Assembly (NCBI GenBank): GCA_963662465.1
Contig: OY759599.1
Coordinates: 4,992,001 to 5,056,000, forward strand
Length of the DNA stretch: 64,000 nt
Source: Desulfatiglandales bacterium
Lineage (GTDB): Bacteria; Desulfobacterota; DSM-4660; Desulfatiglandales; Desulfatiglandaceae
Reading direction: 5' to 3'
The position numbers and the translations under genes were made by a program. The stretch's first letter is position 1; every line of letters starts with the position of its first letter. A model generated the notes under the pieces. It was not told where the DNA came from and made no database searches. It saw nothing but the letters and a program-made list of their open reading frames with translations. Below, piece by piece: positions 824 to 15,385 of the stretch.

Positions 824-1699
824 TTAAATTAAATTGACGGCATTTGGATCTAATCCCATGCCCCGTAACCAGTCTTGAATGGCCCTGAAAAGAAGCCGGT
901 AGTATGCATCCATGCCGCCCAGTCCCCGCCGTCCAAAATAGTAATTGATCTCCAGAAAAAGCGGCAATGGAACCGGCTCCAAAAGGGGAAATACAAAATC
1001 CACGGCAGCCAGATTAATCCCCGTGCGTCTCGCCAGCGCCTGCGCCTGTGCCTTTCCTTTTTCCTGAAGCTCAGGTAACCACTCATGGTCAATGCGAGCG
1101 CCCTTGCTGATGGTAGTAATGACTTGTCCCACTTCGACGGGGCGTTTCCAGTAGCTTATAACCTGGTCGCCCATAATGACCGCTCGGAGCACATTCCCTC
1201 CTGAGGGCACAAAATCCTGCGTCACAAACCCTTTGTTTCCGTCCCCCTCCCGCAAAGCCATGGCACCCAACGCCGCCTCCAGGGATTCCCGTCCTTTTAC
1301 CATAAAAACGCCTTCGGCTTCGTGGCTCACATCGTCCTTGACCACAAAGGGAAAGGGATGCGGCATTCCAGCGGCGCCGAAAACGACATTTTTGAATGCC
1401 TCAACCGTCTTCCAACGAAAGGTTTTGGGATGAGGCAATTGAAATTCCTGGAACAAACGACTTTGTCCGACCTTACCGGGGTAGGCTTGGCGCATTTTAT
1501 AACTGGGAAACATGTTTATTCCGGCTTCGGAACACGCACTTACCAGGCTTTCCACCCGTCCCTGGGGTAAAATAACGGCCTGCGCGCCGCGAATCAGTCG
1601 GAGGTTTTCCTCATTGAGAGCGCGAGCTCCCAGAATAATCTGGCAGTCGGCTGTAAAACAGGGGTGAAAGGACAGGATCATGGCTGTTGTTGACCTCAT
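824..1699 (-). CDS. RimK/glutathione-synthase-like ATP-grasp protein (start may be ATG 1681)
   Basis: PFPFVVK, EGVFMV, VTQDFVP, AAVDF and LFLEINYYFG motifs of the ATP-grasp fold. Confidence 0.8.
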   Translation of the reverse strand: MRSTTAMILSFHPCFTADCQIILGARALNEENLRLIRGAQAVILPQGRVESLVSACSEAGINMFPSYKMRQAYPGKVGQSRLFQEFQLPHPKTFRWKTVEAFKNVVFGAAGMPHPFPFVVKDDVSHEAEGVFMVKGRESLEAALGAMALREGDGNKGFVTQDFVPSGGNVLRAVIMGDQVISYWKRPVEVGQVITTISKGARIDHEWLPELQEKGKAQAQALARRTGINLAAVDFVFPLLEPVPLPLFLEINYYFGRRGLGGMDAYYRLLFRAIQDWLRGMGLDPNAVNLI

Positions 1700-1774
1700 T
1701 CAGGTGGCTTCTGTTTCAGGCGATGTCAAGTGCGACACCCGGAACATCGGGTTCCGAACTAAAAAAACCGATGT

Positions 1775-1803
1775 TTGACTTTGTCTTTGCTTGTGACTAT
1801 ATT
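1775..1803 (+). promoter_or_regulatory. sigma70-type promoter of the FmdB operon
   Basis: TTGACT-17 nt-TATATT upstream of the AAGGAG SD and ATG 1839. Confidence 0.6.
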
Positions 1804-1838
1804 GGGGGACTTATACGATACAATCAAGGAGCAAAACA

Positions 1839-2084
1839 ATGCCTATTTATGAATTCAAATGCCTTGAGTGCGGTGAAGTTTTTGAAAAGCTGTTTATGAA
1901 CTCGGATGAAAAAGCCGATCTCTCATGTCCCAAGTGTTCGTCATACACCCTTCAAAAGGTGGCCAGCGCCACCAATTATGCCCTGGGTGTGGGACCTGGG
2001 GGCAATCAACCCAAGATGACAACCAAATCTTGCGGTTCGGGCAACCAGTGCATGACCCTGGACTTGCCGGGACCATCAAGATAA
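1839..2084 (+). CDS. FmdB family zinc-ribbon protein
   Basis: MPIYEFKCLECG...CPKCSS signature; good SD (AAGGAG). Confidence 0.9.
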   Translation: MPIYEFKCLECGEVFEKLFMNSDEKADLSCPKCSSYTLQKVASATNYALGVGPGGNQPKMTTKSCGSGNQCMTLDLPGPSR

Positions 2085-2362
2085 TGGATATGCCTGCCTT
2101 GCCACTGCTGAAACGGGAACTTGACGAAGATGATAAGTTCCATATCACGGATCTCTTTCATCGGGAAATTGCCGCCCGGCTTTTACGCATGGATGCACGA
2201 ATCGGAAACATCTGCTGTGAATTTGCCGGACCCCAGTACCGGAATTGGATACTTGAATTCAAATCCTCCCGGTGGGGGCTGGAAGTGGTTGATTTTGAAT
2301 ACGACGAAGACGCTAGAAGCTTCGATTTGCCATCACCTGTCACTATTTTGGAACGATATTGA
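2084..2362 (+). CDS. small hypothetical protein (92 aa)
   Basis: ATG overlaps the FmdB stop (TAATG), and its stop overlaps the next gene's start, which indicates operon coupling. It is the 3' part of ORF 1925..2362. Confidence 0.65.
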   Translation: MDMPALPLLKRELDEDDKFHITDLFHREIAARLLRMDARIGNICCEFAGPQYRNWILEFKSSRWGLEVVDFEYDEDARSFDLPSPVTILERY

Positions 2363-3462
2363 AAATGTTTGATCAAAAATTTTTTGGAAGAGAACCGGTC
2401 CAAAGGGCCAAATGCCCTTTTTGCGATTTGCCCGTTGAAAAACCAAAAGAACTGGCCACCCGAAAACCCGGGGAAATGCCCGTCGGCATATGTTCATGCG
2501 GCGCCGTGTATGCCTGCGATGAAACCGGCCATAACCTGGGAGCGGCCCTGATTGAAGCCCTGCTGTTCGGCTGTAACATGGACTGGGACCTGGCATGGGG
2601 GCTGGTGGCGGATGAGGATTATAAACAAGAAATCCTTGAGAATTACGATCTCATCACACACCTGGTGATCCCTTCCGGAACCTATGAGGGCAGAAGAATA
2701 TCCGGGGCCCTTTATTTTATCCGGCTGCATCAGGAAGTGCAGGAAGTTACTGCCCAGGGGGCCAGGGAGCGACTGAATAACGCTGTCAACCATACACCCA
2801 GATCATGGGATAAACAAAGTCGCACCCACAACATGAGCAAGAAAGAGGTGGAAAAAAAGGTCAAGGCATACCAGATAGACCCCATACTGGATGCCGCTCG
2901 GAACGACAAAAAGGTCATCCGGTATCTTCAGCGCCTGCTCTATTCAGGGGACAGTCTGCTTCGCCACAGGGCTGCCGAAGCCCTTGGCCGCGCTTGCGCC
3001 ATTGTCGGAGACAAGGACCCGGGAATGGTTTCCAAACTCCTGCAGGGGCTTTTTTATTCTCTCACGGATACGGCGGCGTTTCCCCTGGGCGCTTTTGAGG
3101 CCATTGGTGAGATCATTACCCATCGGCCCGATCTGTATGGCGGATATACGGCCCAACTCTACCAGTTCACGGGGGATGTTAACCGCCGGATCGATGCTTT
3201 GAAAGCCCTCGGGAGAATTTCGACAACCCAGGCGCCTTTCATCCGCAAGCACACCCTCTACTTTTTTGCCTTTCTTGAAGACCAGGATCCTTCGGTCCGT
3301 GGATATACCACATGGCTCATGGGCAATATCGGGGCTCACGAAGCCGGGAAAGACATGGAAAAGCTTTTGGATGACCCCCATGAAATCGAGATCTACGAAA
3401 CCGGCAATATCCGAAAAATATCGGTGGGTCAAATCGCTTCAGAAGCTCTGAAGAAACTATGA
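2359..3462 (+). CDS. Cys-motif N-terminal domain plus HEAT/PBS-lyase-like repeat protein
   Basis: N-terminal CPFC...CSCGAVYAC. C-terminal helical repeats: LLRHRAAEALG, AFEAIGEI, DALKALGRI, LEDQDPSVRGYTTWLMGNIG. Confidence 0.75.
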   Translation: MKMFDQKFFGREPVQRAKCPFCDLPVEKPKELATRKPGEMPVGICSCGAVYACDETGHNLGAALIEALLFGCNMDWDLAWGLVADEDYKQEILENYDLITHLVIPSGTYEGRRISGALYFIRLHQEVQEVTAQGARERLNNAVNHTPRSWDKQSRTHNMSKKEVEKKVKAYQIDPILDAARNDKKVIRYLQRLLYSGDSLLRHRAAEALGRACAIVGDKDPGMVSKLLQGLFYSLTDTAAFPLGAFEAIGEIITHRPDLYGGYTAQLYQFTGDVNRRIDALKALGRISTTQAPFIRKHTLYFFAFLEDQDPSVRGYTTWLMGNIGAHEAGKDMEKLLDDPHEIEIYETGNIRKISVGQIASEALKKL

Positions 3463-4601
3463 TTGTTTCATATCTATTCGCTTCCCCGGAAGGCGATATT
3501 CCCCTTGAACCGGAAGATCTGTCCAAACCGTTCCGCATAGCGCCCGAAAAAAACCACCCTGTTCTGACCCTTGGCAACTATTTTGATACCCTCAAGGCAT
3601 GTGTTTTGAAAAACCAGGGAGAACTCCTGCAACGCATACTGAAAAATGGACGGCATTGGCGCCTGGAGGATCTATGGAAAATCAAAATTCGCAGTGAAAA
3701 GCATGGCATCCTTTATCACGTGGCCGGCGTCGAAGTGTTTATAAAAGAAACCCGGACAAAATTTACACTGAGTACGGCCATTTCCAGGAAAGGCATTGAA
3801 TGCCTGGTACGCGAACATGACACGCTGGCTCATTTAAACAGTACCTTTGATTTATCATTTTTGCCGGAAATTTACGGCATCAGGGAATTGGCATATCAAA
3901 CGAAACAGGGAACAGCCGAAAAGATGGTCATCCTGATCGCCCAATGGTTTGAGGATTACCATGAATGGCATATGGTCATGGACCCGACGGACGGCAGACA
4001 AAAAATTCAAATCTGGGACTTGAAAAGAGGCCATCGATATGCTTCTTCCACTGAAGGATTTCACATTTTTGAGGAATCCTCCAAAATCCTGGCCCTTTAT
4101 TATGACGGTCGGGATTTCAGCCGGATTGGTGCCTGGCATCATGCGGCCGGAGACTTTATCATCAACGCTCGGGAGGATGGGGGAATAAATGTCAGGCTGA
4201 CCACCGTTCGGGAATACGAGCCGCTGCTGGAAACGGAAAATGCCGGCCCCATGATTGCCATGGCCTATTTTTTCCTGGATACAACGGTCAGGATGCGGCT
4301 CGACAGGCTGGATGGGGTCGGAGAAACGGTTTGGGCGGGCGATTTTGCCGTAACCGCCACCGTCAAGGGATTTATTGAAGGACTTCGTGCGCGGGAAATA
4401 AAAGGAAATGGTGTTGCGGGGGTCCGGACGGCGGACCTTCTTTCCCTGCTGCAATCTTTCGACAAACCGGAACTCAGCCAGGTTTTCGAGCCGCTGCTGG
4501 CCCATTACGCGGCACGGGGTTCAAATGACATGGGTCCCATAAGTGCCCACATTGCCGATCACATCAGCTGCCTGCGCCAAGCCCTTCAGGATTTTCATTG
4601 A
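3459..4601 (+). CDS. conserved hypothetical protein, possibly protein-kinase-like fold
   Basis: 380-aa ORF coupled by an ATGA overlap. The motif order REHDTL / FLPEIYG / LIAQWFEDY / WHHAAGDFII resembles the kinase-like fold. Confidence 0.65.
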   Translation: MIVSYLFASPEGDIPLEPEDLSKPFRIAPEKNHPVLTLGNYFDTLKACVLKNQGELLQRILKNGRHWRLEDLWKIKIRSEKHGILYHVAGVEVFIKETRTKFTLSTAISRKGIECLVREHDTLAHLNSTFDLSFLPEIYGIRELAYQTKQGTAEKMVILIAQWFEDYHEWHMVMDPTDGRQKIQIWDLKRGHRYASSTEGFHIFEESSKILALYYDGRDFSRIGAWHHAAGDFIINAREDGGINVRLTTVREYEPLLETENAGPMIAMAYFFLDTTVRMRLDRLDGVGETVWAGDFAVTATVKGFIEGLRAREIKGNGVAGVRTADLLSLLQSFDKPELSQVFEPLLAHYAARGSNDMGPISAHIADHISCLRQALQDFH

Positions 4602-4603
4602 CC
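4564..4603. repeat. 40-bp direct repeat, copy 1 (copy 2 at 5458-5497)
   Basis: tcagctgcctgcgccaagcccttcaggattttcattgacc; 38/40 identical to copy 2. Confidence 0.95.
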
Positions 4604-4645
4604 CGTTTGCATCATCCCGGATACCTATAATTCTCCTGCCCGTCC

Positions 4646-4672
4646 GTAGAGACAAGGCATGCCTTGTCTCAC
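4646..4672. repeat. GTAG-type REP-like palindrome
   Basis: GTAG leading into the perfect 22-bp palindrome gagacaaggcatgccttgtctc. Confidence 0.7.
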
Positions 4673-5095
4673 CTATCGATCATACGGCGACAGTACTGGA
4701 ATAATTTGTTTTTTGTTTTTCCGATAGATGCCAAAATCAGTATCAATCGTAAAAACAGCGCTTTCGGCGTATACTTCTGCCATTTTCACCAGGCAGGCAT
4801 CTGCCAACGACATCGGAACATTGGAATATTTCCGCGAAAGCCAGGCCATTTGGCTTATATGCTCAATCATTCTAAAAGGAATATCCAAGATCCTTCGTTT
4901 AAGAAGTTCAAAAACAGCGATTTGTCCTCCATCAAAACCACCGAGAAGAAAACATGCCTCTGATAACACGGCTTCACACGTCAACAAAGGGGGCTCAATC
5001 TGCGCCCATTGCAATGTCGCCCACTTATGGTATTTGTCCCTGCCGTTAATAATCGCCACAAGAGGCCCGGTATCCAAAATAACACGTCGCTTCAT
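4673..5095 (-). CDS. vapC: VapC/PIN-domain toxin
   Basis: VILDTGPLVA, EAVLSEA, MSLADACLV and FTIDTDF acidic PIN motifs. Confidence 0.9.
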   Translation of the reverse strand: MKRRVILDTGPLVAIINGRDKYHKWATLQWAQIEPPLLTCEAVLSEACFLLGGFDGGQIAVFELLKRRILDIPFRMIEHISQMAWLSRKYSNVPMSLADACLVKMAEVYAESAVFTIDTDFGIYRKNKKQIIPVLSPYDR

Positions 5096-5331
5096 TTGCC
5101 GTAACCACGCATGTGCTTTTGATGAAAAGACAGGTCCACCGGTCCCTTCACAGATCCCACAAGATCTTTAGCAAGATCTAAACAGGATCCCTTTGGGGCG
5201 TGAAGGTCTCCTGCTATAAATGTCTCAATGGCTTCTCTTAACAGTGCAGACCTGCTTTCACCTCTTTCCCTCGCCATGGAATCAAGATTTACAAGCAATG
5301 ATTCCGACAACTTGAGTGACAATGTTTTCAT
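5092..5331 (-). CDS. CopG/ribbon-helix-helix antitoxin
   Basis: MKTLSLKL...SRSALLREAI; 4-nt overlap directly upstream of the PIN toxin. Confidence 0.85.
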   Translation of the reverse strand: MKTLSLKLSESLLVNLDSMARERGESRSALLREAIETFIAGDLHAPKGSCLDLAKDLVGSVKGPVDLSFHQKHMRGYGK

Positions 5332-5457
5332 AACACCCTCCCCTTATAATACCATCCTGACCGAAGGGTAATACCACGGCGATTTTATGTCAAGAATATA
5401 ATGAGAAGCAAAATGCCCTTGATGGGGGAATGGGAGTGGCCGAAACGATGATCAAAG

Positions 5458-5497
5458 TCAGCTGCCTGCGTCAGGCCCTTCAGGATTTTCATTGACC
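5458..5497. repeat. 40-bp direct repeat, copy 2
   Basis: tcagctgcctgcgtcaggcccttcaggattttcattgacc. Confidence 0.95.
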
Positions 5498-6111
5498 AGA
5501 TCTTCCACGGTTGTCTTGATGATTTTCGGAATAGAGATCAGCAGGGATGCCCTTTCCTCGGCAGAATCATTTTTGATATTCTCCAGAAGGTCCCTGGATA
5601 ATTCAAACAGCTCCTTCTGTACCCCATCCATGTTAAAGATGGGATAGGCCTGACCCTTCTTGAAGCCGGTGCTGCCGCAAATCCGCGGCACCCGATGGAC
5701 CATGGTGGGAATACCGTAAACCCGACAGGTGATGGGGCGATAAGGGTACAGAATGCAAGCGTCTTCATCGTTGAGCAGGGGACAGCGAATTCTCGCTCTG
5801 GCCATGGAATAGGCACTCATCTGGGGATCATCCCTGAACTCCCCAAGGGTTCTTTGAAGAATTTCAAGCTCCTTTTCCGCTGCAAGCCCCCTTGCCAGGG
5901 CCGCATTTTTCTCCGTTTCCCCAAGCTGATCGAAATCATGCTTCAAAAAAACGGCTTCGATCAGAAAAAGTCCAAACACGGCGTGACAGCAATCCGCGCA
6001 GCCGGGCTTGCAGGCAATACAATCCGGATATTCCCTTGCCATCCGCTCAAAGGACTTGTCTGCTCGACTGACCAGTCTATCGTAAGGCTCAAATAAATAA
6101 GAAAAATCCAT
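5458..6111 (-). CDS. YkgJ/UPF0153 (CxxCxxCC) cysteine-cluster protein
   Basis: CKPGCADCC ... RCPLL...CILYPYRPITCRVYG...C. Confidence 0.9.
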   Translation of the reverse strand: MDFSYLFEPYDRLVSRADKSFERMAREYPDCIACKPGCADCCHAVFGLFLIEAVFLKHDFDQLGETEKNAALARGLAAEKELEILQRTLGEFRDDPQMSAYSMARARIRCPLLNDEDACILYPYRPITCRVYGIPTMVHRVPRICGSTGFKKGQAYPIFNMDGVQKELFELSRDLLENIKNDSAEERASLLISIPKIIKTTVEDLVNENPEGPDAGS

Positions 6112-6113
6112 TT

Positions 6114-6734
6114 TTATCGATGCGGCTCCAATGCTTTTAGAAACTCGGGATGAGGGTCAAGCCCTAAGGCAACCGCCTTGTCCAAATTTTCAATGGCCTT
6201 CGAATAATCACCCTTATTGTAATAGGCGGAGGCGAGGTTGTTCCGACCGAGAGCGAAATCAGGGGCAAGCGCCGCCATTTTTTCCCCGGTTTCAATGGCT
6301 TTTTCAATCTCATCATTTTGCAAATAGGCGTTGGTCAGATTGTTCCAGGCTTGAATAATCTCCGGATTCAGTTCAATGGCTTTGGTAAGGGCATTAATGG
6401 CCTCTTCGGTTTTCATCATCTGAAGATAAGCGAAACCGAGGTTGGCGTATCCCCGTGCGTATCGGGGCTCTATCTGAATCGCTCTCTCATTGACATGAAT
6501 AACCCTCTCCAGATCCCCCTTCTTAAAGTAAATATAACCCAGGTTAACAAATGCTTCAAACATTCGCGCGCTGTTTTCAATGGCGTCGTTAAAGGCGCCG
6601 ATGGCCTCATCCAGCTTTCCCTGTTCCATGAGGGAAACCCCCTCATTATATTGTGTGCTGGCGCATTCCGTATCTTCATCCCGTATTTGTTTTTGCTTGA
6701 AAATAAACTCTTCCGAGTCCTGTGGCGTCTTCAT
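6114..6734 (-). CDS. tetratricopeptide repeat protein
   Basis: About five 34-aa repeats with AxxNLG/NLA consensus. Confidence 0.9.
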   Translation of the reverse strand: MKTPQDSEEFIFKQKQIRDEDTECASTQYNEGVSLMEQGKLDEAIGAFNDAIENSARMFEAFVNLGYIYFKKGDLERVIHVNERAIQIEPRYARGYANLGFAYLQMMKTEEAINALTKAIELNPEIIQAWNNLTNAYLQNDEIEKAIETGEKMAALAPDFALGRNNLASAYYNKGDYSKAIENLDKAVALGLDPHPEFLKALEPHR

Positions 6735-6743
6735 GGTATACCT

Positions 6744-8072
6744 CTAAGCTTGGTTAAAATCAGAAGAAAAAAAACTCTTCATAACGTTAATAAATTCTTC
6801 TCCGCGATGGGCGGTGGACGGCTTTGATTTTTCAGATACCAGCACATCCTTCTTTAAAAAGGGCAAAAAATCCGACACCCCCGGAACCACGACCCTGACA
6901 ACGGGAAACCCCAAAACAGGATGAGTATGGTTCAAAATAATCGCGTCGGTTTTCAAATGTCGGCAGATCCCCTTAAGGTCATCAATCTCTTCAAAGATGT
7001 CTTTGCATTTTTTTTCCCTGAAAGGCGTTGGCTTTCCATTTTCCAAAAATGAAATATCTTTCAACGCCACACCGCATCGCATGAGCATATAGTAATCATC
7101 AACCGCTGCCTTGCGAACCACCGCTTTATCAAAATTGGGCCTTGATTTTTTAAGTGTGGCACGCCCCTGTACGCCCTCCGTAAAACATCGGGTTAACCCC
7201 TCCATGAGGTTAAAAGATGCCCCAGGCGTGAGGACCCGGTGTTCGAGACGATCCGGGGCCAGGTTGTGGTTGGTGTACAAAACGCCGATCACCGGCAGCA
7301 TGCCGTCAAATGAAAGGTCCTTGATAAGCACTGAAATGTTCTGTTTCTCATAAAACCCGATCATTTCCTGAACAAAGGGGTCTTTCACGGTCCGGCTGTC
7401 GATGGTGGGGACTTCTTTTTCGGGTCTGACAACCCGAATCTGCACATATCGTTCAAATATCTCACAAGTGGCCTGCACAAGGGCTTCTTCAAGGGTATTG
7501 CCGGCGGCCATGCCATTGGACCCATGAATATAGTTGACAAAATTGACAGGCACCTTAATATTTTGCTGCTTCACCAGTGAAAAACCATCCACCCAATGAC
7601 GGCACATTTCGCTGTTTTTAATGCTTTGGATATCTTCTGTTGACAAATGGGTTTCCTTTTGCAGCAACGCTTCCACCGTCAACGGATGGTCCAGCTCATC
7701 CTGGTGGGCATTGACGTAACCTTCCATCCATTCAAAATTGAGAAACCGCCTGGCGTCCCGGCCATATAACGCCGGCATATTGAACCGAACCTGTTCTTCA
7801 AAGACCGGATAAAACATACCGGCACTCAGCCGTTCGGTCAATTCCGCCAATGCGCTGGCTTCACAAAGAGAAGCGGTTGTTCCCTTCCCTTCACAGATGA
7901 TCTTGATTGAATCAATCCAGATTTGCCCCCAGTAGAGATTGTCCGCTGCCTTGAATTGCCGGTATTCCGGTTGAAGGCGCAAGCGTTTAAACCCCTTCCG
8001 AATTCGGTCGATGGTGTTGGCGGGAATATCGCATTTCCCATAATCGTTTCTAACAAAGTTCCGCAATTTCAT
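6744..8072 (-). CDS. ycaO: YcaO-family protein
   Basis: GKG..ASALAELTER, GSNGMAAGNTLEEALVQATCEIFER, RCFTE and LGFPVVRVVVPG are YcaO ATP-binding and core motifs. Confidence 0.9.
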   Translation of the reverse strand: MKLRNFVRNDYGKCDIPANTIDRIRKGFKRLRLQPEYRQFKAADNLYWGQIWIDSIKIICEGKGTTASLCEASALAELTERLSAGMFYPVFEEQVRFNMPALYGRDARRFLNFEWMEGYVNAHQDELDHPLTVEALLQKETHLSTEDIQSIKNSEMCRHWVDGFSLVKQQNIKVPVNFVNYIHGSNGMAAGNTLEEALVQATCEIFERYVQIRVVRPEKEVPTIDSRTVKDPFVQEMIGFYEKQNISVLIKDLSFDGMLPVIGVLYTNHNLAPDRLEHRVLTPGASFNLMEGLTRCFTEGVQGRATLKKSRPNFDKAVVRKAAVDDYYMLMRCGVALKDISFLENGKPTPFREKKCKDIFEEIDDLKGICRHLKTDAIILNHTHPVLGFPVVRVVVPGVSDFLPFLKKDVLVSEKSKPSTAHRGEEFINVMKSFFSSDFNQA

Positions 8073-8247: not shown

Positions 8248-8478
8248 CTAATGATCTTCCGTTTGTCCTCTCCCTTTCATACCGTACATGGTGCTGCTGC
8301 CGGTGGAAAAATAGATCAGTTTTTCTTCAGTAATCAACGCAGTGGCAGCCTTTTTGATCATCCTGGCCTTGGCATCCGGAAGCACCTTCTGAACCGCTTT
8401 CTGGATGTCGTTAAAATAGAATTTGCTTTTTTTGCTATTTTCAGCAAATTCCATAATGGCTTTTTTCATGTCTTCCAT
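8248..8478 (-). CDS. dsrD: dissimilatory sulfite reductase D protein
   Basis: KSKFYFND...YFSTGSSTMYG; directly downstream of dsrB. Confidence 0.95.
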   Translation of the reverse strand: MEDMKKAIMEFAENSKKSKFYFNDIQKAVQKVLPDAKARMIKKAATALITEEKLIYFSTGSSTMYGMKGRGQTEDH

Positions 8479-8569
8479 TGTTGCTCCTTTATGTCATATT
8501 CCGTCCGGGGAAGAGACGTTTTGCAAGCATGGTTCCCCCCCCCCCGGGCGGAACTAATTGAGCATTCGT

Positions 8570-9757
8570 TTATTTGATGCCGTTGACGGCTCTTGATACA
8601 GCCCAGGACGCCTCGGTATATTTAAACTGAGTGGATGTCCTGTAGGTATCATACTGGAGTCGGTAATCATCAATAAGATGTTCCGTAAAGGGAAGATCGC
8701 ATTTTTCAAAGAATTTTTCCCAGCCGATTCTCTCGGCCCAGTCGCCAATACGCTCATATTTGTTGGCGTCCCCTGCGTAAGCATTAATGATCTGCTTGAC
8801 GTTCTCGCACACCTCAGGGAATCTCGGGAAGGTGTTGGGCAGCGCCGGTACAACCACCTTGGAAAATTTGGGCGGTGAAATCCGGTTGGAAACCTTGCCG
8901 CCCGCCATAATGGTAACACAGTCCCCTTCACTATCCGACAGGGGCAGGGCCATACACATGGTGTAGCAGTTACCGCAGAACATACAACGTTCGCTCTTAA
9001 TCTTGACCGCTTTTTTGCCGGATTCGGTTTTGGCGGGCGAAATAGCGGCTGTGGGGCAAGCCGCAATGACCAGCGGAATTTCGCAGTACTGATCCAAGAC
9101 TTCGGCGTCCACAATCGGCGGTTTCCGGTGATATCCCAGAAGGGCGATATCGGAACAATGCACGGCCCCGCACATATTGAGGCAGCAGGCCATGGACACA
9201 CGGACCTGGGCCGGCAGACTCATGCCCTGGAAATGGTCAAAAAGATCATCCATGACGGCCTTGACCATACTGGAAGCATCCGTAGCAGGCGTATGGCAAT
9301 GAATATAACCCTGAGTATGGATGATATTGGTGACGCCGGCCCCCGTGCCGCCAATGGGGAATTTATAACTGCCGGTAACATGCTTACGGCTCTGAAGGTC
9401 CTTTTTCAGGGCCTCCATTTTGCTCTGGCTGTCCACCATAAATTCCAGGTTATTTCGCGTGGTAAACCGCATGAACCCGTCACAGTGTTTGTCGGCGATT
9501 TCACAGATTTCCCGAACATTTTCAACGCTCATGTAACGGCAACCGCCGCACCGGACGGTAAAGACCTTGTCGCCGCTTTCGGCCACATGCACCAGAATGC
9601 CGGGTTCCAGAATATCGTGGTACAGCCATTTGCCGTAATTATTCTGAATAACCGAAGGAAAATACTGCCAGAAATGCCGAGGACCAAGATCCGTCAGACG
9701 GTTTTCCATGGGTTTTTCAGGATTATATAGTCCTAGTCTTTCTAATGATAATGCCAT
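8570..9757 (-). CDS. dsrB: dissimilatory sulfite reductase beta subunit
   Basis: [42 protein letters not shown] ferredoxin domain, KYERIGDW. Confidence 0.98.
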
Positions 9758-9769
9758 TATAGATTCCTC

Positions 9770-11188
9770 CTATCTTGCATGTCTGGATCGGTAGTCGTCG
9801 ATATCGCGGTCCCATCCACCGGGCACATCCTCTTCCTTCCAGAAGATGTAGGGGTTGCTTCTCGGCTCTCTCACCATCTGCGGCATGGGCGGAATCTCCA
9901 GGACCTGCAGCAACTTGGCGACACCCTGACGCTGGATCAGCTCGCCCAAACGTTCACGGTTCTTCCCTTCTTCCGGCCACCATTCCCAGATTTTTTCCAC
10001 GATTTCCTTGATATTGTCATAAGGCGCTTCGCATTCCATGAAAGGAATCGTCAGAATACCCATCTGGGCGCCGTCCAAGATGGGGGCTTTGGCGCCGAAC
10101 TGGATGCTGCATCCTGTTTCAACACCGGGTCTCAGGGCTCTCGGCATGACGTTGATGCAATGCATGCAACGGGTGCATTCCTTGTCGTCGATCATGAGTT
10201 TGCCGTCTTCCATCCACATGCAGTTGGTGGGACACAGGTTAATCACTTCTTTTTCAATGTTGAAGGCGCCCCAGTCTTTGCCCGCATGGGCGCCGGCGTT
10301 GGGTGCAATTTCACCACCGATATAGGCCTGTACCGCTTCCTGATCGATCCGAATATTGTCTTTCCATGTACCGATAAAGCTCATATCCGACCGGGCAATG
10401 GAGGCCACGCAACCGTTGGGGCAGCCATCAAATTTAAACTTAAATTTGTAGGGAAAAGCCGGACGGTGCAGCTCATCCTGATAAAAATGGGTCAATTCGT
10501 AACACATGCCCTGGGTGTCAATACAGGAGTATTCACAACGAGCCTTGCCGATACAGCAGGACGGCGTACGAAGATTGGAACCGGAACCGCCCAGATCCTG
10601 CTGAAGGACGTGCCCCAATTCATAAAAAATGGGCTCCAACTGCTCGGTAGTGGTCCCGATGCAGACCATATCGCCCGTGGAACCATGAAAATTCATCAAG
10701 CCGCTGCCCCGATACTCCCAAAGGTCGCAAACACACCGGAGATAATCGCTGGAATAGAACTTACTGGCAGGCTGGTTGATACGCATGGTATGAAAATGCG
10801 CAATAGAAGGGAACCTTTCGGGCAAATCCGAATACCTGCCGATAACGCCGCCGCCGTAACCGAACACGCCCACGATGCCGCCATGTTTCCAGTGGGTTTC
10901 CTTGTCGTCATAGGAAACCTGGAGCTGTCCCATCAGATCCTCGACCACGTCTCGATCGATCAACATGCGGTCATCGGCCAGATTTTTGCGGTGAAGGGCC
11001 TCTCGTTTGGAATCCGCTACAAAACTCGGCCAGGGACCTTTTTCCAGTTCGTCCAGATCGGGGATGTCATGTTTGCATTTATATGCCTTGAGTTCATCCT
11101 CCGTATAGTTGTTCAGCTCCTCATCCGTGTAGATGCGAAGCTCGTCGTACTTCAATACTTTTTGTTCTTCGTTGGGTTCAAAAGCCAT
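9770..11188 (-). CDS. dsrA: dissimilatory sulfite reductase alpha subunit
   Basis: GPWPSFV, THWKHGGIVGVFGYGGGVIGRY, Cx5C siroheme motif, FPYKFKFKFDGCPNGC, PRSNPYIFW. Confidence 0.98.
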   Translation of the reverse strand: MAFEPNEEQKVLKYDELRIYTDEELNNYTEDELKAYKCKHDIPDLDELEKGPWPSFVADSKREALHRKNLADDRMLIDRDVVEDLMGQLQVSYDDKETHWKHGGIVGVFGYGGGVIGRYSDLPERFPSIAHFHTMRINQPASKFYSSDYLRCVCDLWEYRGSGLMNFHGSTGDMVCIGTTTEQLEPIFYELGHVLQQDLGGSGSNLRTPSCCIGKARCEYSCIDTQGMCYELTHFYQDELHRPAFPYKFKFKFDGCPNGCVASIARSDMSFIGTWKDNIRIDQEAVQAYIGGEIAPNAGAHAGKDWGAFNIEKEVINLCPTNCMWMEDGKLMIDDKECTRCMHCINVMPRALRPGVETGCSIQFGAKAPILDGAQMGILTIPFMECEAPYDNIKEIVEKIWEWWPEEGKNRERLGELIQRQGVAKLLQVLEIPPMPQMVREPRSNPYIFWKEEDVPGGWDRDIDDYRSRHAR

Positions 11189-11432: not shown

Positions 11433-11566
11433 TAAAAAAAAACGGAACGGTTCCATGACTTTTTTGTTGACAATTTTAAGAGACCGTGTTCCTTATTTCG
11501 GCCATGATGGGTTACAATCATAAATCACAACCACTCAAAACCAAATTGATAAAAAGAGACGCTGAT

Positions 11567-12988
11567 ATGCATCCCCGCGTAATTATTGCCGCCCTGAAAG
11601 GCGGATCCGGTAAAACCATTCTTTCCCTGGGCCTTGCCGCAGCCTGGCGGGAAGCAGGCTACATCGTTGCACCTTTTAAAAAAGGACCCGATTTTATTGA
11701 CGCCGGCTGGCTTTCCCTGGCAACGGGAAAGAAATGTTATAACCTGGATCCTTTTCTAATGAATGAAGAACAGATCCTGAACTCCTTTCTGAAACATTCC
11801 GAAAGCGCGGAGATTGCCATTATTGAAGGGAACAGAGGGATCTATGACGGCCTCGACCTCAATGGGTGCTGCAGCACTGCCGAACTGGCCAGACTGCTTA
11901 AAGCGCCGGTGCTGATTGTTTTGGACGTCACCATGACAACGCGTACCATGGCAGCCGTCGTTCAAGGATGCCAGGTATTTGATCCGGACCTGAACATTGC
12001 CGGCGTTATTCTCAACCGAGTGGCCGGGCCCCGACAGAAGAAACTGATTACGGAAGCCATTTGGAAATACTGCGGCATCCCCGTGGTGGGTTCAATTCCA
12101 AAACTTAGGGAACACCCCTTTCCGGAAAGGCATATGGGCCTGGTCCCCCACCAGGAGAGCGACCGGGCGCAAAAAGCCATTTCATGGGCCAAAAAAACCG
12201 TCATGGACAACCTGCAACTGGAACATATCCGGGAAATCGCCGACCGGGCCCCGCAACTGGAGGGAATAACACCCTCCAGTAAACCGGCAACCTTCCCTGA
12301 AAATGAAACCTTACACCCGCGAATTGGTTTTATAAGGGATCAGGCCCTGTGGTTCTATTATCCTGAAAACCTGTCTCAACTTGAGGATCTGGGGGCAGAG
12401 CTGATTGAACTGGACGCCCTTTCATCAACCCGGTTGCCGAAGCTGGATGCGCTCTATATTGGTGGGGGATTTCCCGAAACGCAGGCCCGGGCCCTGGCCG
12501 ATAACGCCTCTTTTCGAAATGCCCTGAAACAGGAAATCGAAGCGGGACTTCCCGTTTATGCCGAGTGTGGCGGGCTCATTTATCTGGGAGAAAGGATTCT
12601 GCTGGATAGCGGGAATTATCCGATGGTCGGAGCGCTTCCCATGGAATTCGTTTTTCAAAAAAAGCCACAGGGGCACGGATATACCGTATTGGAAACCCGC
12701 GGTCAAAATCCCTACTACCCCATTGGGGAAACACTGCGTGGGCACGAATTCCACTATTCAAAAGCCGTGTTTACCGCTTCGAAAGAGCCGGTCCATTTTG
12801 CCTTTAATGTAAAACGAGGTCACGGCATCGACGGTGCAAGAGATGGGATTTGCAAGAAAAATGTATTGGGCACTTATACGCATATTCATGCGGCCGGTCA
12901 GTCCAAGTGGGCTAAAGGCCTTTTCAGGGCAGCTCTCAATCACCAAAAAAAGTGGTCAACGGCCAAAGAAGGGGAAAAGAATATTTGA
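11567..12988 (+). CDS. dsrN: cobyrinate a,c-diamide synthase homologue (siroheme amidase DsrN)
   Basis: GGSGKT, FKKGPDFID, EGNRG, ERHMGL, YAECGG, GHEFHYS and YTHIH motifs of the CbiA/CobB family; dsr context. Confidence 0.9.
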   Translation: MHPRVIIAALKGGSGKTILSLGLAAAWREAGYIVAPFKKGPDFIDAGWLSLATGKKCYNLDPFLMNEEQILNSFLKHSESAEIAIIEGNRGIYDGLDLNGCCSTAELARLLKAPVLIVLDVTMTTRTMAAVVQGCQVFDPDLNIAGVILNRVAGPRQKKLITEAIWKYCGIPVVGSIPKLREHPFPERHMGLVPHQESDRAQKAISWAKKTVMDNLQLEHIREIADRAPQLEGITPSSKPATFPENETLHPRIGFIRDQALWFYYPENLSQLEDLGAELIELDALSSTRLPKLDALYIGGGFPETQARALADNASFRNALKQEIEAGLPVYAECGGLIYLGERILLDSGNYPMVGALPMEFVFQKKPQGHGYTVLETRGQNPYYPIGETLRGHEFHYSKAVFTASKEPVHFAFNVKRGHGIDGARDGICKKNVLGTYTHIHAAGQSKWAKGLFRAALNHQKKWSTAKEGEKNI

Positions 12989-13013
12989 CAACATAAAAAA
13001 TGGGAATTATACT
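12985..13013 (+). promoter_or_regulatory. sigma70 promoter of dsrC
   Basis: Near-consensus TTGACA-17 nt-TATACT overlapping the dsrN stop. Confidence 0.75.
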
Positions 13014-13102
13014 GTTTTGATTGTGTATGGAGATGGACGAAAAAAATTTTCAGACAAGATATCTTGGAGTATCTTAAATTAACAAAGGGAGGTTAATTAG
13101 TT

Positions 13103-13420
13103 ATGCCGACAGTAGAATTTGAGGGAACCAGCTATGACGTTGATGAAGACGGGTTCATTGATGACTTCGCCCACTGGGATGTAGGATGGATGAGTTATGT
13201 AAAGACAAGCGAGGGCATTGACGAGATTACGGACGAACACAAAAAGGTCGTTGATGTTTTACAGGAGTACTACAAGAAAAACGGCATCGCACCCATGGTC
13301 AGAATTCTGTCCAAAGTCACCGGCTACAAACTGAAATATATCTACGAACTGTTCCCTTCAGGACCGGGCAAAGGCGCCTGTAAAATGGCTGGACTTCCCA
13401 AACCGACCGGTTGCGTATAA
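13103..13420 (+). CDS. dsrC: DsrC sulfur-carrier protein
   Basis: C-terminal LFPSGPGKGACKMAGLPKPTGCV with both conserved Cys; SD GGAGG. Confidence 0.97.
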   Translation: MPTVEFEGTSYDVDEDGFIDDFAHWDVGWMSYVKTSEGIDEITDEHKKVVDVLQEYYKKNGIAPMVRILSKVTGYKLKYIYELFPSGPGKGACKMAGLPKPTGCV

Positions 13421-13529: not shown

Positions 13530-14336
13530 TTACGTGTAAAGTTTGGGCCGTCGCTGGGACAGGAAATATTTCATTCGATGTTCCCTGATGTTTTTCAGCG
13601 TTTCACCTTTCAGTACCGCGAAAAGGATCTTTTCCCCTTTCCCTTGAAACTGCGCTAACAGTCTTCCATCAGGACCCAACACCAGGGCGACCCCAGGAAA
13701 TGAGAGCCCGGCGCCGTTTTCACCCACCGGATTGCAGGCCACCACAAAAACGCCATTGTCAAAGGCCCTGGCCGAGAGGTGACGCATCCAGCTCTTCATC
13801 TTTTCTTCCGGATCACCCCTGGGAGAAGCATGTGGGAAAAAAAGGATATCCGCCCCCTTGAGTGCCATGGTTGTGCTGATCTCCGGGAAATGGGCATCAT
13901 AACAGAGTTGAATACCAAAGGTCCAACTCCCGCAGGTAAAAACACCAAGCTCTTCCCCTGGGGCATAAACACCTTTCTCAGTGGGGGACAGATGCGTTTT
14001 GCGGTATATGCCAACCAGGCCTTCAGGACCCGCAACCACCTGTGAAACGAAAGGTTTTTCCTGACCCCCATGCTCGATTACACCCACCATCAGCACAATG
14101 CCCATATCCCGGCCCAATCGAATCAAACGATCCAGAATCTTGTCGGTGTCTCCGGCACTGCAATATTTTCCAGGATTTTCCAGGGCATAACCGGTGGCCG
14201 CAAACTCAGGGAAGCAGACCATCCGGGCGCCCTCCTGAGCCGCTGCCGAAGCCATCCCCGCAATCCGGTCCATATTCCCTCGAATATCCCCAAGGACTGA
14301 GTTCATGCAGACAACGGCAATTTTGAGATCCATCAT
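13530..14336 (-). CDS. carbon-nitrogen hydrolase (nitrilase superfamily)
   Basis: Catalytic triad in FPEF, YRKTHL, LCYDAHFPE; RAFDNGVFV. ATG 14336 overlaps the ilvC stop (ATGA). Confidence 0.9.
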   Translation of the reverse strand: MMDLKIAVVCMNSVLGDIRGNMDRIAGMASAAAQEGARMVCFPEFAATGYALENPGKYCSAGDTDKILDRLIRLGRDMGIVLMVGVIEHGGQEKPFVSQVVAGPEGLVGIYRKTHLSPTEKGVYAPGEELGVFTCGSWTFGIQLCYDAHFPEISTTMALKGADILFFPHASPRGDPEEKMKSWMRHLSARAFDNGVFVVACNPVGENGAGLSFPGVALVLGPDGRLLAQFQGKGEKILFAVLKGETLKNIREHRMKYFLSQRRPKLYT

Positions 14337-15385
14337 TTGTTTCGGTTTTCCGGTCTCAAAGCCCTGACGGCTGCCCCGGCCCGCCACATCTCGGAGTCCC
14401 TGATTTCCGAGAGTTCCCGGTCAAGTCCATCCCGATAGTCGTCCCGGCTGTTGGCGTCCAGAACAATCCGGGCTTCCTTTCCGGATTTGACGCTTTCATA
14501 AAGATCGTCAAATACGGGGGCCACGGCCTCTTTGAACTTTCCACGCCAATCCAGGGCGCCCCGCTGGGCTGTGGTGCTGCAGTTTCCGAACATCCAGTCC
14601 ATGCCGTTTTCCGCCACCAGGCGGATAAGGCTCTGGGTCAGCTCTTCAACGGTTTCATTGAAGGCCTCACTGGGGCTGTGCCCATGCTTGCGCAGAAGGT
14701 CATACTGAGCTTCCATGACGCCGGCCAGGCAACCCATCAATACCCCCCGTTCACCGGTCAAATCACTGAACACCTCTTTTTCAAAGGTCGTTGGAAAAAG
14801 ATAACCACTCCCAATGGCCACGCCAAGGGCCAGGGTGCGTTCCCGGGCACGACCCGTATAGTCCTGAAATATGGCAAAACTGGAGTTGATGCCGCTGCCG
14901 GCCAGGAAATTTCTGCGAACGGTTTTGCCGCTTCCCTTTGGGGCCACCAGTATTACATCCACATCCTTGGGGGGGACGATACCCGTCTGGTCCTTGTAAG
15001 TGACCCCAAAACCATGGGAAAAATAAAGCGCATCCCCCGAATTCAAACAGGCCTTAATGCTGGGCCATGTGGCCACCTGGCCGGCATCAGACACCAGATA
15101 CTGAATAACCGTCGCGCGTTTTGCGGCTTCCTCCAGTGAAAACAACGTCTCACCCGGAACAAAGCCATCCTCGATGGCGCGGTTCCAGGAGGGACTCCCA
15201 TCACGCTGCCCCACGATCACCGTAAACCCGTTATCTTTCATATTAAGGGCCTGACCCGGTCCCTGCACGCCGTACCCCAGAACAGCAATGGTTTCATTTT
15301 CCAGGACCTTTTGCGCTTTTTCCAGGCTGAACTCCGCCAAGGTGATCACCTCTTCAATCGTACCGCCAAAATCAATCTGCGCCAT
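14333..15385 (-). CDS. ilvC: ketol-acid reductoisomerase
   Basis: GYGVQG, FSHGF, APKGSG, EVFSDLTGERGVLMG, NCSTTAQRGA. Confidence 0.95.
   Translation of the reverse strand: MAQIDFGGTIEEVITLAEFSLEKAQKVLENETIAVLGYGVQGPGQALNMKDNGFTVIVGQRDGSPSWNRAIEDGFVPGETLFSLEEAAKRATVIQYLVSDAGQVATWPSIKACLNSGDALYFSHGFGVTYKDQTGIVPPKDVDVILVAPKGSGKTVRRNFLAGSGINSSFAIFQDYTGRARERTLALGVAIGSGYLFPTTFEKEVFSDLTGERGVLMGCLAGVMEAQYDLLRKHGHSPSEAFNETVEELTQSLIRLVAENGMDWMFGNCSTTAQRGALDWRGKFKEAVAPVFDDLYESVKSGKEARIVLDANSRDDYRDGLDRELSEIRDSEMWRAGAAVRALRPENRNK

Follow-up and report, generated by a model that had tools for sequence, protein, structure and literature searches.

The global sulfur cycle centres on DsrAB, an enzyme about whose assembly and upkeep, to our knowledge, little has been established. 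In the stretch analysed here (the window; 64,000 nucleotides of contig OY759599.1 from a sulfate-reducing Desulfatiglandales bacterium), eight uncharacterised genes sit below dsrABD, opposite dsrN-dsrC, which raises the question of what these genes do beside this enzyme. They encode a short stand-alone YcaO protein, a tetratricopeptide repeat (TPR) protein, a CxxxCxxCC protein, a kinase-like protein, a HEAT-repeat protein with an N-terminal Cys domain, a small conserved protein, an FmdB-type zinc ribbon and a RimK-like ATP-grasp ligase (Table 1). The initial annotation proposed that they may form a peptide- or protein-modification system attached to the dsr locus. All eight open reading frames downstream of dsrABD were recovered at the coordinates it had given, and its labels for the YcaO, TPR, CxxCxxCC, HEAT, ATP-grasp and FmdB proteins were upheld by Pfam and NCBIfam scores. 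The attachment to dsr holds for most of the genes; the single system does not. A core, consisting of the TPR, CxxxCxxCC, HEAT and kinase-fold genes and probably the FmdB gene, is almost restricted to dsr-bearing genomes and lies beside dsrAB in many orders. The explanation that we favour, with roughly even confidence, is that this core is an old kit for the assembly or repair of DsrAB. Lineage add-ons are the short YcaO, the small open reading frame (ORF) and the placement of the ATP-grasp gene near dsr.

The genes were profiled in a fixed sample of 160 genomes of the phylum, each at least 90% complete, of which 79 carry dsrB, and gene order was compared across 81 dsrB-centred loci (G and L codes denote genomes and loci). 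The profiles were made from dsr-linked homologues, many out of the sampled genomes themselves, and their cut-offs were chosen after the scores were known; related genomes are not independent in these counts, and many assemblies are fragmented. The TPR gene was detected in 61 genomes, 60 of them dsrB-positive and 40 of these with the gene at most 10 kb from dsrB, while the 61st carrier has no dsrB and has dsrA at a contig end. DsrD, DsrN and DsrC are known accessory proteins of DsrAB, and their genes lie within 10 kb of dsrB at 74, 52 and 29 of the 81 loci, respectively, compared with 40 for the TPR gene. The CxxxCxxCC gene was found in 33 genomes, every one dsrB-positive (16 at most 10 kb from dsrB), a count that omits four partial matches (E 1e-26 to 1e-30) in dsrB-negative genomes. 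The full-length HEAT gene is present in 29 genomes, all with dsrB (17 at most 10 kb away), omitting C-terminal-only and N-terminal-only matches, three of which are in genomes without a dsrB match; it lies at most 5 kb from the TPR gene in all 29, including those where dsrAB is distant. The kinase-fold gene occurs in 25 genomes, 23 of them dsrB-positive, and is at most 10 kb from dsrB in 20. By these profiles the orthologues of the four genes are not scattered without regard to dsr. Within the order, a TPR orthologue was present in six of six dsrB-positive and none of four dsrB-negative genomes tested, a pattern of co-loss. Around dsrAB at least five gene orders were seen across the 81 loci, in which order and orientation are shuffled and adjacency is kept.

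Tree distances point in the same direction for two of the core proteins. Those of the TPR protein correlated with DsrB at rho 0.73 and with RpoB at 0.47, those of the CxxxCxxCC protein at 0.80 and 0.37, and the DsrA control gave 0.81 and 0.43 (G004 and the second dsrB copy of G135 were omitted from these tests). The same 10-row clade, comprising the order, family f37 (f numbers are labels without taxon names) and one G004 copy, is starred in the DsrB, TPR and CxxxCxxCC trees. Co-folding of the HEAT, CxxxCxxCC and TPR proteins, in which the TPR protein was scored, gave 0.00 and speaks neither for nor against the association.

The CxxxCxxCC protein, of YkgJ type, scored above the PF03692 cut-off and is a member of that family; eight Cys residues are invariant across 24 sequences, suggesting a putative Fe-S or Zn binder. 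The HEAT protein belongs to the DVU0298 family (NF045662, 149.5 bits versus a cut-off of 75, over residues 164-365), and in its N-terminal Cys domain (CPFC...CxCG) C19, C22, C45 and C47 are invariant in 25 sequences. In the ESM Atlas this domain fell in unnamed clusters, Nitrospirota being commonest. DVU0298 itself, whose 786 nt encode the short form that lacks the Cys domain, was discarded as a candidate orthologue of the HEAT gene. Elsewhere the source genome has a short HEAT paralogue of the DVU0298 type (sites of this paralogue and of a second YcaO, G000:C1:3533350-3534000 and G000:C1:3577156-3577836). In five thermophile-like families (L083, L089, L093, L094, L156) the HEAT protein reaches 570-580 amino acids (aa) through a C-terminal TPR-like region, and in other loci a separate TPR-like gene follows the HEAT gene. 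The Cys domain occurs alone (~120-135 aa) in ten dsrB-positive genomes (G005, G046, G060, G081, G092, G112, G123, G127, G142 and G153), nine of which have no TPR match. Genome G004 carries two divergent dsrB copies and two HEAT/CxxxCxxCC sets that group with different lineages (L052, L063, L164, L165), with two YcaO genes beside dsrN and HEAT at L164; G135 has two dsrAB copies (L078, L091). These duplicate sets may be mixed bins.

No Pfam or NCBIfam match was obtained for the kinase-like protein. Its AF2 model (pLDDT 88.6) retrieved kinases throughout among the Foldseek hits listed, the best structural match being N-acetylhexosamine kinase (Z 14.1, rmsd 4.3, 249 residues aligned), and we are confident in the predicted bilobed protein-kinase-like (APH/choline kinase) fold. 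Canonical kinases carry a catalytic H-x-D-x4-N loop and a DFG/DxE Asp. In this protein, with the register set by sequence, the loop reads W226-H-H-A-A-G-D232, in which W, G and D are kept in 46 of 46 sequences, followed by T249 in 43 and R251 in all 46; both the canonical catalytic Asp and the DFG/DxE Asp appear to be replaced. The ESM Atlas placed it in unnamed clusters and DUF6206, and a representative search with its profile returned 840 clusters at E<=0.001, all unnamed. The FmdB protein has a conserved C-terminal tail that holds two Cys, and its subfamily was found in nine of the 81 dsrB-centred loci.

The remaining genes show a different distribution. The ATP-grasp protein retains the residues of its fold (PF08443, 26.4 bits; K76, K121, D234, E250 and N252 invariant in 12 sequences) and fits no named family, as its scores fall below the cut-offs of TIGR00768 (36.8 versus 143.4), MptN (23.7 versus 350) and LysX (15.7 versus 275.6). 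All 31 carriers of its gene are dsrB-positive, and the gene is at most 10 kb from dsrB in just two of them; elsewhere it also stands beside lysS-lolC-bamA genes. ATP-grasp orthologues adjoin the ribosome GTPase gene era in two genomes, and the CxxxCxxCC gene adjoins mnmE in two genomes (loci L168, L169 and L166, L173, the latter pair listed with CxxxCxxCC-mnmE). The small ORF is confined to four genomes, all dsrB-positive and of the same order, three of which have no short YcaO. It is conserved over its full length and is, judged from the alignment, an order-specific conserved protein and not a variable precursor. As a stand-in for DVU3273 of Desulfovibrio (see below) it was rejected, with an hhalign probability of 0.7 to the DVU3273-like family.

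The short YcaO belongs to the YcaO superfamily, combining the PF02624 match with E196, Q200, E204, E207, R208, K63, E77, E80 and R81, invariant in 20 sequences, among which the residues of the ATP-binding motif Sx6-7Ex3Qx3ExxER given in PMC7774982 are kept. Its closest titled matches (85-94% identity) are from Desulfatiglandales metagenome-assembled genomes and delta proteobacterium NaphS2. It was found in two of the 160 genomes, both dsrB-positive with the gene at most 10 kb from dsrB, and in six of 100 genomes of the order. Among 14 same-order loci showing the junction between dsrD and the TPR gene, YcaO stands there in one; it is a late arrival at the locus. The short forms make up three subclades at three dsr positions, namely after dsrD, after dsrN-dsrC (G129, G237, G256), and before TPR-kinase-dsrA or dsrA, the third subclade consisting of Desulfobacterales-type records with some members unlinked to dsr. 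A dsr or TPR neighbour was present in 16 of 25 genome loci (none in six, three too short) and in 13 of 29 metagenome loci (none in 16, several of them short). A long, TPR-fused YcaO subfamily is more common (53 of the 160 genomes, 52 with dsrB), and in eight of 20 genomes, across six families and in two gene orders, it lies ~2 kb or less from dsrC on the same strand (G028, G066, G158, G054, G149, G088, G037, G104); it is distant from dsrC in the other 12. Among nine long-YcaO loci, three show it near dsrC (L178, L182, L183). The source genome has a second YcaO of ~580 aa away from the window, of the DVU2210 type by length and domains only.

Azoline-forming YcaO enzymes (TOMM/SagD) have an E1/ThiF-like partner and a Pro-rich C-terminus; the window protein was rejected from this group, scoring 59 versus 219 bits against TIGR03604, with no E1/ThiF among the eight genes and C-termini that are not Pro-rich. 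Membership of a TfuA-YcaO thioamidation system was likewise rejected, as TfuA (PF07812) was detected in none of five genomes, including the source genome, with Methanosarcina acetivorans (M. acetivorans) as the positive control. The protein is also unlike the uL16-thioamidating YcaO (NF040716, 124.8 versus 700; pI 7.6, with 5.3-8.2 in 12 short forms, versus an acidic 4.4). We know of no thioamide in structures of DsrAB or DsrC. The lack of TfuA does not exclude thioamidase-like working, because TfuA-free thioamidases exist: PMC13063428 describes the stand-alone Escherichia coli (E. coli) YcaO as the uL16 Met82 thioamidase, acting on a folded protein without TfuA and with a sulfur source that is not known. 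On this precedent, thioamidase chemistry is most likely the activity of the window YcaO. The idea that YcaO modifies a protein here survives in a reduced form, for an enzyme repeatedly placed beside dsr genes and working by itself, not as part of an eight-gene pathway.

Probable counterparts of two core genes occur in Desulfovibrio. Locus L152 has the order htrA, ferredoxin, CxxxCxxCC (223 aa), a 130-aa protein and TPR (208 aa), with identities to the window of 38% for CxxxCxxCC and 32% for TPR. DVU3276-DVU3272 match L152 in order and length according to the supplement of PMC10102598, and Dde_3776-Dde_3772 match it in order according to that of PMC4045070. By gene order and length the window CxxxCxxCC protein is probably the orthologue of DVU3274/Dde_3774 and the TPR protein probably that of DVU3272/Dde_3772. 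The accessible literature labels the genes of this operon just as hypothetical or TPR proteins. In Dataset S5 of PMC5083090, DVU3273, encoded between them, pairs with both DsrA and DsrB in the high-confidence set from affinity purification-mass spectrometry (AP-MS) only, the same class as DsrD. A 110-130-aa family without a Pfam match, probably that of DVU3273/Dde_3773, recurs beside TPR, CxxxCxxCC or dsrAB (L057, L060, L064, L067, L071, L082, L095, L097, L098; L151-L153, L166, L173); the DVU3273-like family is present in nine of the 81 dsrB-centred loci. In the wild-type library the insertion densities of DVU3272, DVU3273 and DVU3274 are low (0.05, 0.17 and 0.11; supplement of PMC10102598), and in strain G20 insertions in Dde_3774 are listed at the gene edges only.

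These data lead us to prefer an assembly or repair kit for DsrAB, and an intracellular, Dsr-related role, as the initial annotation had favoured, is the best reading. The binding, metal content and function that we infer for the core proteins are as follows. The TPR protein would serve as the scaffold on which the Cys-rich proteins reach DsrAB, and these would put the iron-sulfur and siroheme-linked clusters of the enzyme in place, protect them or repair them, chiefly following exposure to oxidants; the kinase-fold protein, lacking the usual catalytic motifs, could be an optional nucleotide-binding regulator. The add-on layer would comprise the small protein confined to the order, a RimK-like ATP-grasp ligase that is a neighbour and no more, and the short YcaO. 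This last enzyme most likely acts by itself, thioamidating the backbone of a folded protein at the expense of ATP and independently of TfuA, with sulfur from sulfide or carried by DsrC.

Several observations weigh against the assembly-or-repair reading. A TPR match is missing in 19 of the 79 dsrB-positive genomes. In the approximately unbiased (AU) test RpoB rejected neither Dsr-type grouping (p-AU 0.42 and 0.21), the groups having been named after the trees were seen, and the claim is therefore one of co-divergence, that of co-transfer having been dropped. The HEAT distances follow RpoB (rho 0.73) more closely than DsrB (0.55), and those of the kinase-fold protein are ambiguous (0.40 with DsrB, 0.45 with RpoB). 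A profile retest of five dsrB-positive relatives found the kinase-fold gene in none (in kinase-less relatives only match positions indicate which genes surround TPR, and in what order), and the gene is present in dsrB-negative G001 (L129) and G172 (L143); in G001 it adjoins ATP synthase genes. The Desulfovibrio orthology was drawn from order and length alone, not from the sequences of the DVU and Dde proteins, and no homologue of DVU3273 was found in the source genome. Rows supported by AP-MS only can be noise in the table of PMC5083090, since RibH is also listed there as a partner of DsrA and DsrB, and the partners of the TPR protein DVU3272 in that table are AroA and DVU0318, neither of them a Dsr protein. 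Insertions in DVU3272-DVU3274 are tolerated in JW710 (densities 1.15, 0.89 and 0.21; supplement of PMC10102598), and Dde_3772 and Dde_3773 are listed as dispensable in G20 (supplement of PMC4045070); such tolerance points to helpers, not obligatory parts.

A possible, if doubtful, alternative is that the core is a general kit for redox or oxygen stress and ferredoxin maintenance, placed near dsrAB for co-regulation and not acting on it. In Desulfovibrio-type loci the genes come after ferredoxin I, at a distance from dsrAB, and 20 of the 60 dsrB-positive TPR carriers have the gene either over 10 kb from dsrB or on a separate contig. According to PMC4215793, no genes are more co-fit with Nox, an enzyme needed under oxygen stress, than Dde_3773 (r 0.80) and Dde_3772 (r 0.79), with sulfate or without. 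This co-fitness also counts in favour of the assembly-or-repair reading, against which it counts that Nox phenotypes are not specific to sulfate reduction. In PMC5193443, Dde_3774 and Dde_3773 fall into one stationary-phase fitness cluster together with Dde_3201. A general kit fits poorly with the near-total restriction to dsr-bearing genomes, the co-loss of TPR with dsrB in the order, the TPR and CxxxCxxCC distances that follow DsrB and the pull-down rows of DVU3273 with DsrA and DsrB. Inherited gene order without common function is improbable: many sampled genomes are kin, and the HEAT and kinase-fold proteins track the species tree no less closely than they track DsrB, against which stand the adjacency kept through shuffled order and orientation, the constant HEAT-TPR proximity and, again, the loss of TPR with dsrB.

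The YcaO could itself be the active heart of the locus, thioamidating DsrC, DsrA/B or DsrD or drawing sulfur from DsrC. Although we consider this rather unlikely, a YcaO acting on or with a Dsr protein can be compatible with the assembly-or-repair reading. The three subclades at three dsr positions, the long form (52 of 53 carriers dsrB-positive, beside dsrC in eight of 20 genomes), the absence of TfuA and the pI range unlike that of the uL16 enzyme argue for it; the rarity of the short form, its loci without dsr or TPR neighbours and the long forms away from dsrC argue against it, as do the DVU2210 data: the deletion strain still respires sulfate and sulfite in the accessible account of PMC7774982, the gene is dispensable in library data and no row for it was present in the interactome files searched. 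By extension, and as speculation, sulfate reducers may have a counterpart of methanogen methyl-coenzyme M reductase (MCR) thioamidation, in which YcaO enzymes recruited to dsr several times, often beside dsrC, would put a thioamide into DsrC, DsrAB or DsrD, or would use DsrC as a sulfur donor replacing ThiS/TfuA, alongside the proposed TPR/Fe-S kit. That all eight genes form one RiPP-like (ribosomally synthesised and post-translationally modified peptide) pathway that modifies the FmdB tail or the product of the small ORF is highly improbable and largely refuted by the profiles. The full arrangement is kept in close relatives (L016, L019, L147, L240, L241), the active-site residues of YcaO and ATP-grasp are intact and the FmdB tail keeps its two Cys. 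Of the 160 genomes, however, only 14 have the complete four-gene core and only one has all six profiled genes; the ATP-grasp gene lies elsewhere than near dsrB in 29 of 31 carriers, YcaO is absent from its position in 13 of 14 loci of the same order that otherwise retain the arrangement, and the halves are apart in L013/L014 and in G170, a genome of the same genus, where ~131 kb separate the two units. The enzymes are thus not co-localised across genomes, and no short precursor co-occurs with them, as the small ORF is conserved and FmdB recurs without YcaO. The search for a RiPP precursor, a TfuA or an E1 partner gave none, and none of the eight genes encodes an E1/ThiF, TfuA, protease or transporter.

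The layout of the locus is given in Table 1, in which the name dsrN is assigned from gene position. The gaps of 9 bp between ycaO and TPR and of 2 bp between TPR and CxxxCxxCC agree with the initial annotation, as do the overlapping stop and start codons of FmdB and the small ORF (1 bp; TAATG, 2082-2086) and of HEAT and the kinase-like gene (4 bp). An overlap between the small ORF and HEAT had also been proposed; alignment of orthologues makes the HEAT start likelier at ATG 2365, leaving a 2-bp gap, and in the same way 1681 is the more likely ATP-grasp start. Promoter and terminator scans of the locus gave chance-level results, so the three transcription units rest on gene spacing only. The public runs were contigs throughout and yielded no information on transcripts.

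Table 1. Features of the dsr locus in the window, with strand and supporting scores
Feature	Coordinates	Strand	Remarks
RimK-like ATP-grasp ligase, 285 aa from likely start	824..1681	-	longest ORF extends to 1699
FmdB-type zinc ribbon, 81 aa	1839..2084	+	TIGR02605 57 bits
Small conserved protein, 92 aa	2084..2362	+	17 invariant columns, 13 sequences
Cys domain + DVU0298-family HEAT, ~365 aa	2365..3462	+	longest ORF from 2359
Protein-kinase-like (APH/choline kinase fold) protein, 380 aa	3459..4601	+	predicted fold
Left copy, 40-nt direct repeat	4564..4603		at end of kinase-like gene
PIN-domain (VapC-like) toxin	4673..5095	-	PF01850 36.3 bits
RHH antitoxin	5092..5331	-	PF01402 32.2 bits
Right copy, 40-nt direct repeat	5458..5497		at end of CxxxCxxCC gene
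YkgJ-type CxxxCxxCC protein, 217 aa	5458..6111	-	PF03692 27.4 bits, cut-off 23
TPR protein, 206 aa	6114..6734	-	most widespread of the eight
Short stand-alone YcaO, 442 aa	6744..8072	-	PF02624 174 bits
dsrD	8248-8478	-	
dsrB	8570-9757	-	
dsrA	9770-11188	-	
dsrN (CobB-like amidase) + dsrC	11486..13420	+	TIGR00379 421 bits, TIGR03342 107 bits

Between the convergent kinase-like and CxxxCxxCC genes lies a VapBC-type toxin-antitoxin (TA) pair, recognised from the RHH and PIN matches, both above their Pfam cut-offs, and a 4-bp gene overlap. It is bordered by 40-nt direct repeats, 95% identical, that contain the stop codons of both convergent genes and have no further copy anywhere in the genome. 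The pair is missing from the loci of relatives; the insert-free L016, L017 and L019 have a single repeat copy and a 38-bp 3' overlap of the two genes, confirming the earlier proposal that the gene linkage predates the insertion. In DNA sample X2 (= X3), possibly the source, the stretch recurs with the TA pair still in place, and no excised form was seen among the joints shown for that sample. The same junction receives other inserts, a PAS-receiver-LuxR gene as well as cyclase and MORN genes (L135:6918-9688; L146:7258-9647), that are unrelated to the window TA insert (4564-5497), and it is a breakpoint in G170, L013 and L014. A palindromic element of ~27 nt at ~4645-4672, within the TA insert, has 32 sites in the genome, often intergenic-looking, and is possibly a REP-like repeat. 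A carbon-nitrogen hydrolase gene (13530-14387), convergent on dsrC, is kept in close relatives, and a poly-C run between dsrB and dsrD (8535-8543) differs in length among contigs of run X4.

In the literature found, most subscription papers being outside the search, there was no account of the set or of any connection between YcaO and DsrC, and no function was given for the TPR, CxxxCxxCC, HEAT or kinase-fold genes. The locus supplies a short list of candidate DsrAB helpers, among them a TPR gene that in this sample stands beside dsrAB as regularly as dsrC or dsrN, and mutants of the probable orthologues exist in two model Desulfovibrio libraries. The TPR and CxxxCxxCC genes could also serve as further markers of the dsr pathway. 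The link between YcaO and dsrC gives a substrate or sulfur-donor hypothesis for the orphan DVU2210 group of YcaO proteins and bears on how TfuA-free YcaOs obtain sulfur, a point raised in PMC13063428.

Like DsrD, DsrN and DsrC, the TPR protein is a dsr-linked helper, in its case a candidate. The kinase-fold protein resembles the small-molecule kinases of the APH/choline-kinase fold (Z 12-14 to NahK, APH(2''), homoserine kinase and methylthioribose kinase), although it is 8-12% identical to them and its catalytic Asp positions appear replaced. The nearest solved relative of the window YcaO by sequence (E 2.7e-19) and fold is E. coli YcaO, which is also stand-alone and has no TfuA; it differs in length (586 versus 442 aa) and pI (4.4 versus 7.6), and the window protein is dsr-linked. 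DVU2210 of Desulfovibrio vulgaris, a YcaO-TPR protein, is likewise a sulfate-reducer YcaO with an orphan substrate in the account of PMC7774982, whereas the window YcaO is ~27% identical to the long forms, has no fused TPR and forms its own clade. As with the methanogen YcaO(-TfuA) thioamidase of McrA glycine (TIGR03266; MJ1094, the best PDB match of the joint short and long YcaO profile), a YcaO is associated with the key enzyme by which an anaerobe gains energy; in contrast, the window YcaO scores 72 bits versus a cut-off of 365, has no TfuA and is not universal among dsr-bearing genomes. The closest parallel to the core is the Desulfovibrio ferredoxin I operon (DVU3276-DVU3272 / Dde_3775-Dde_3772), in which CxxxCxxCC and TPR genes of the same families follow in the same order and the middle gene, DVU3273, encodes the AP-MS partner of DsrA and DsrB. 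That operon stands behind ferredoxin I at a distance from dsrAB and has a member of the 130-aa DVU3273 family, which is absent here, whereas the window locus adds the HEAT, kinase-fold, FmdB, YcaO and ATP-grasp genes.

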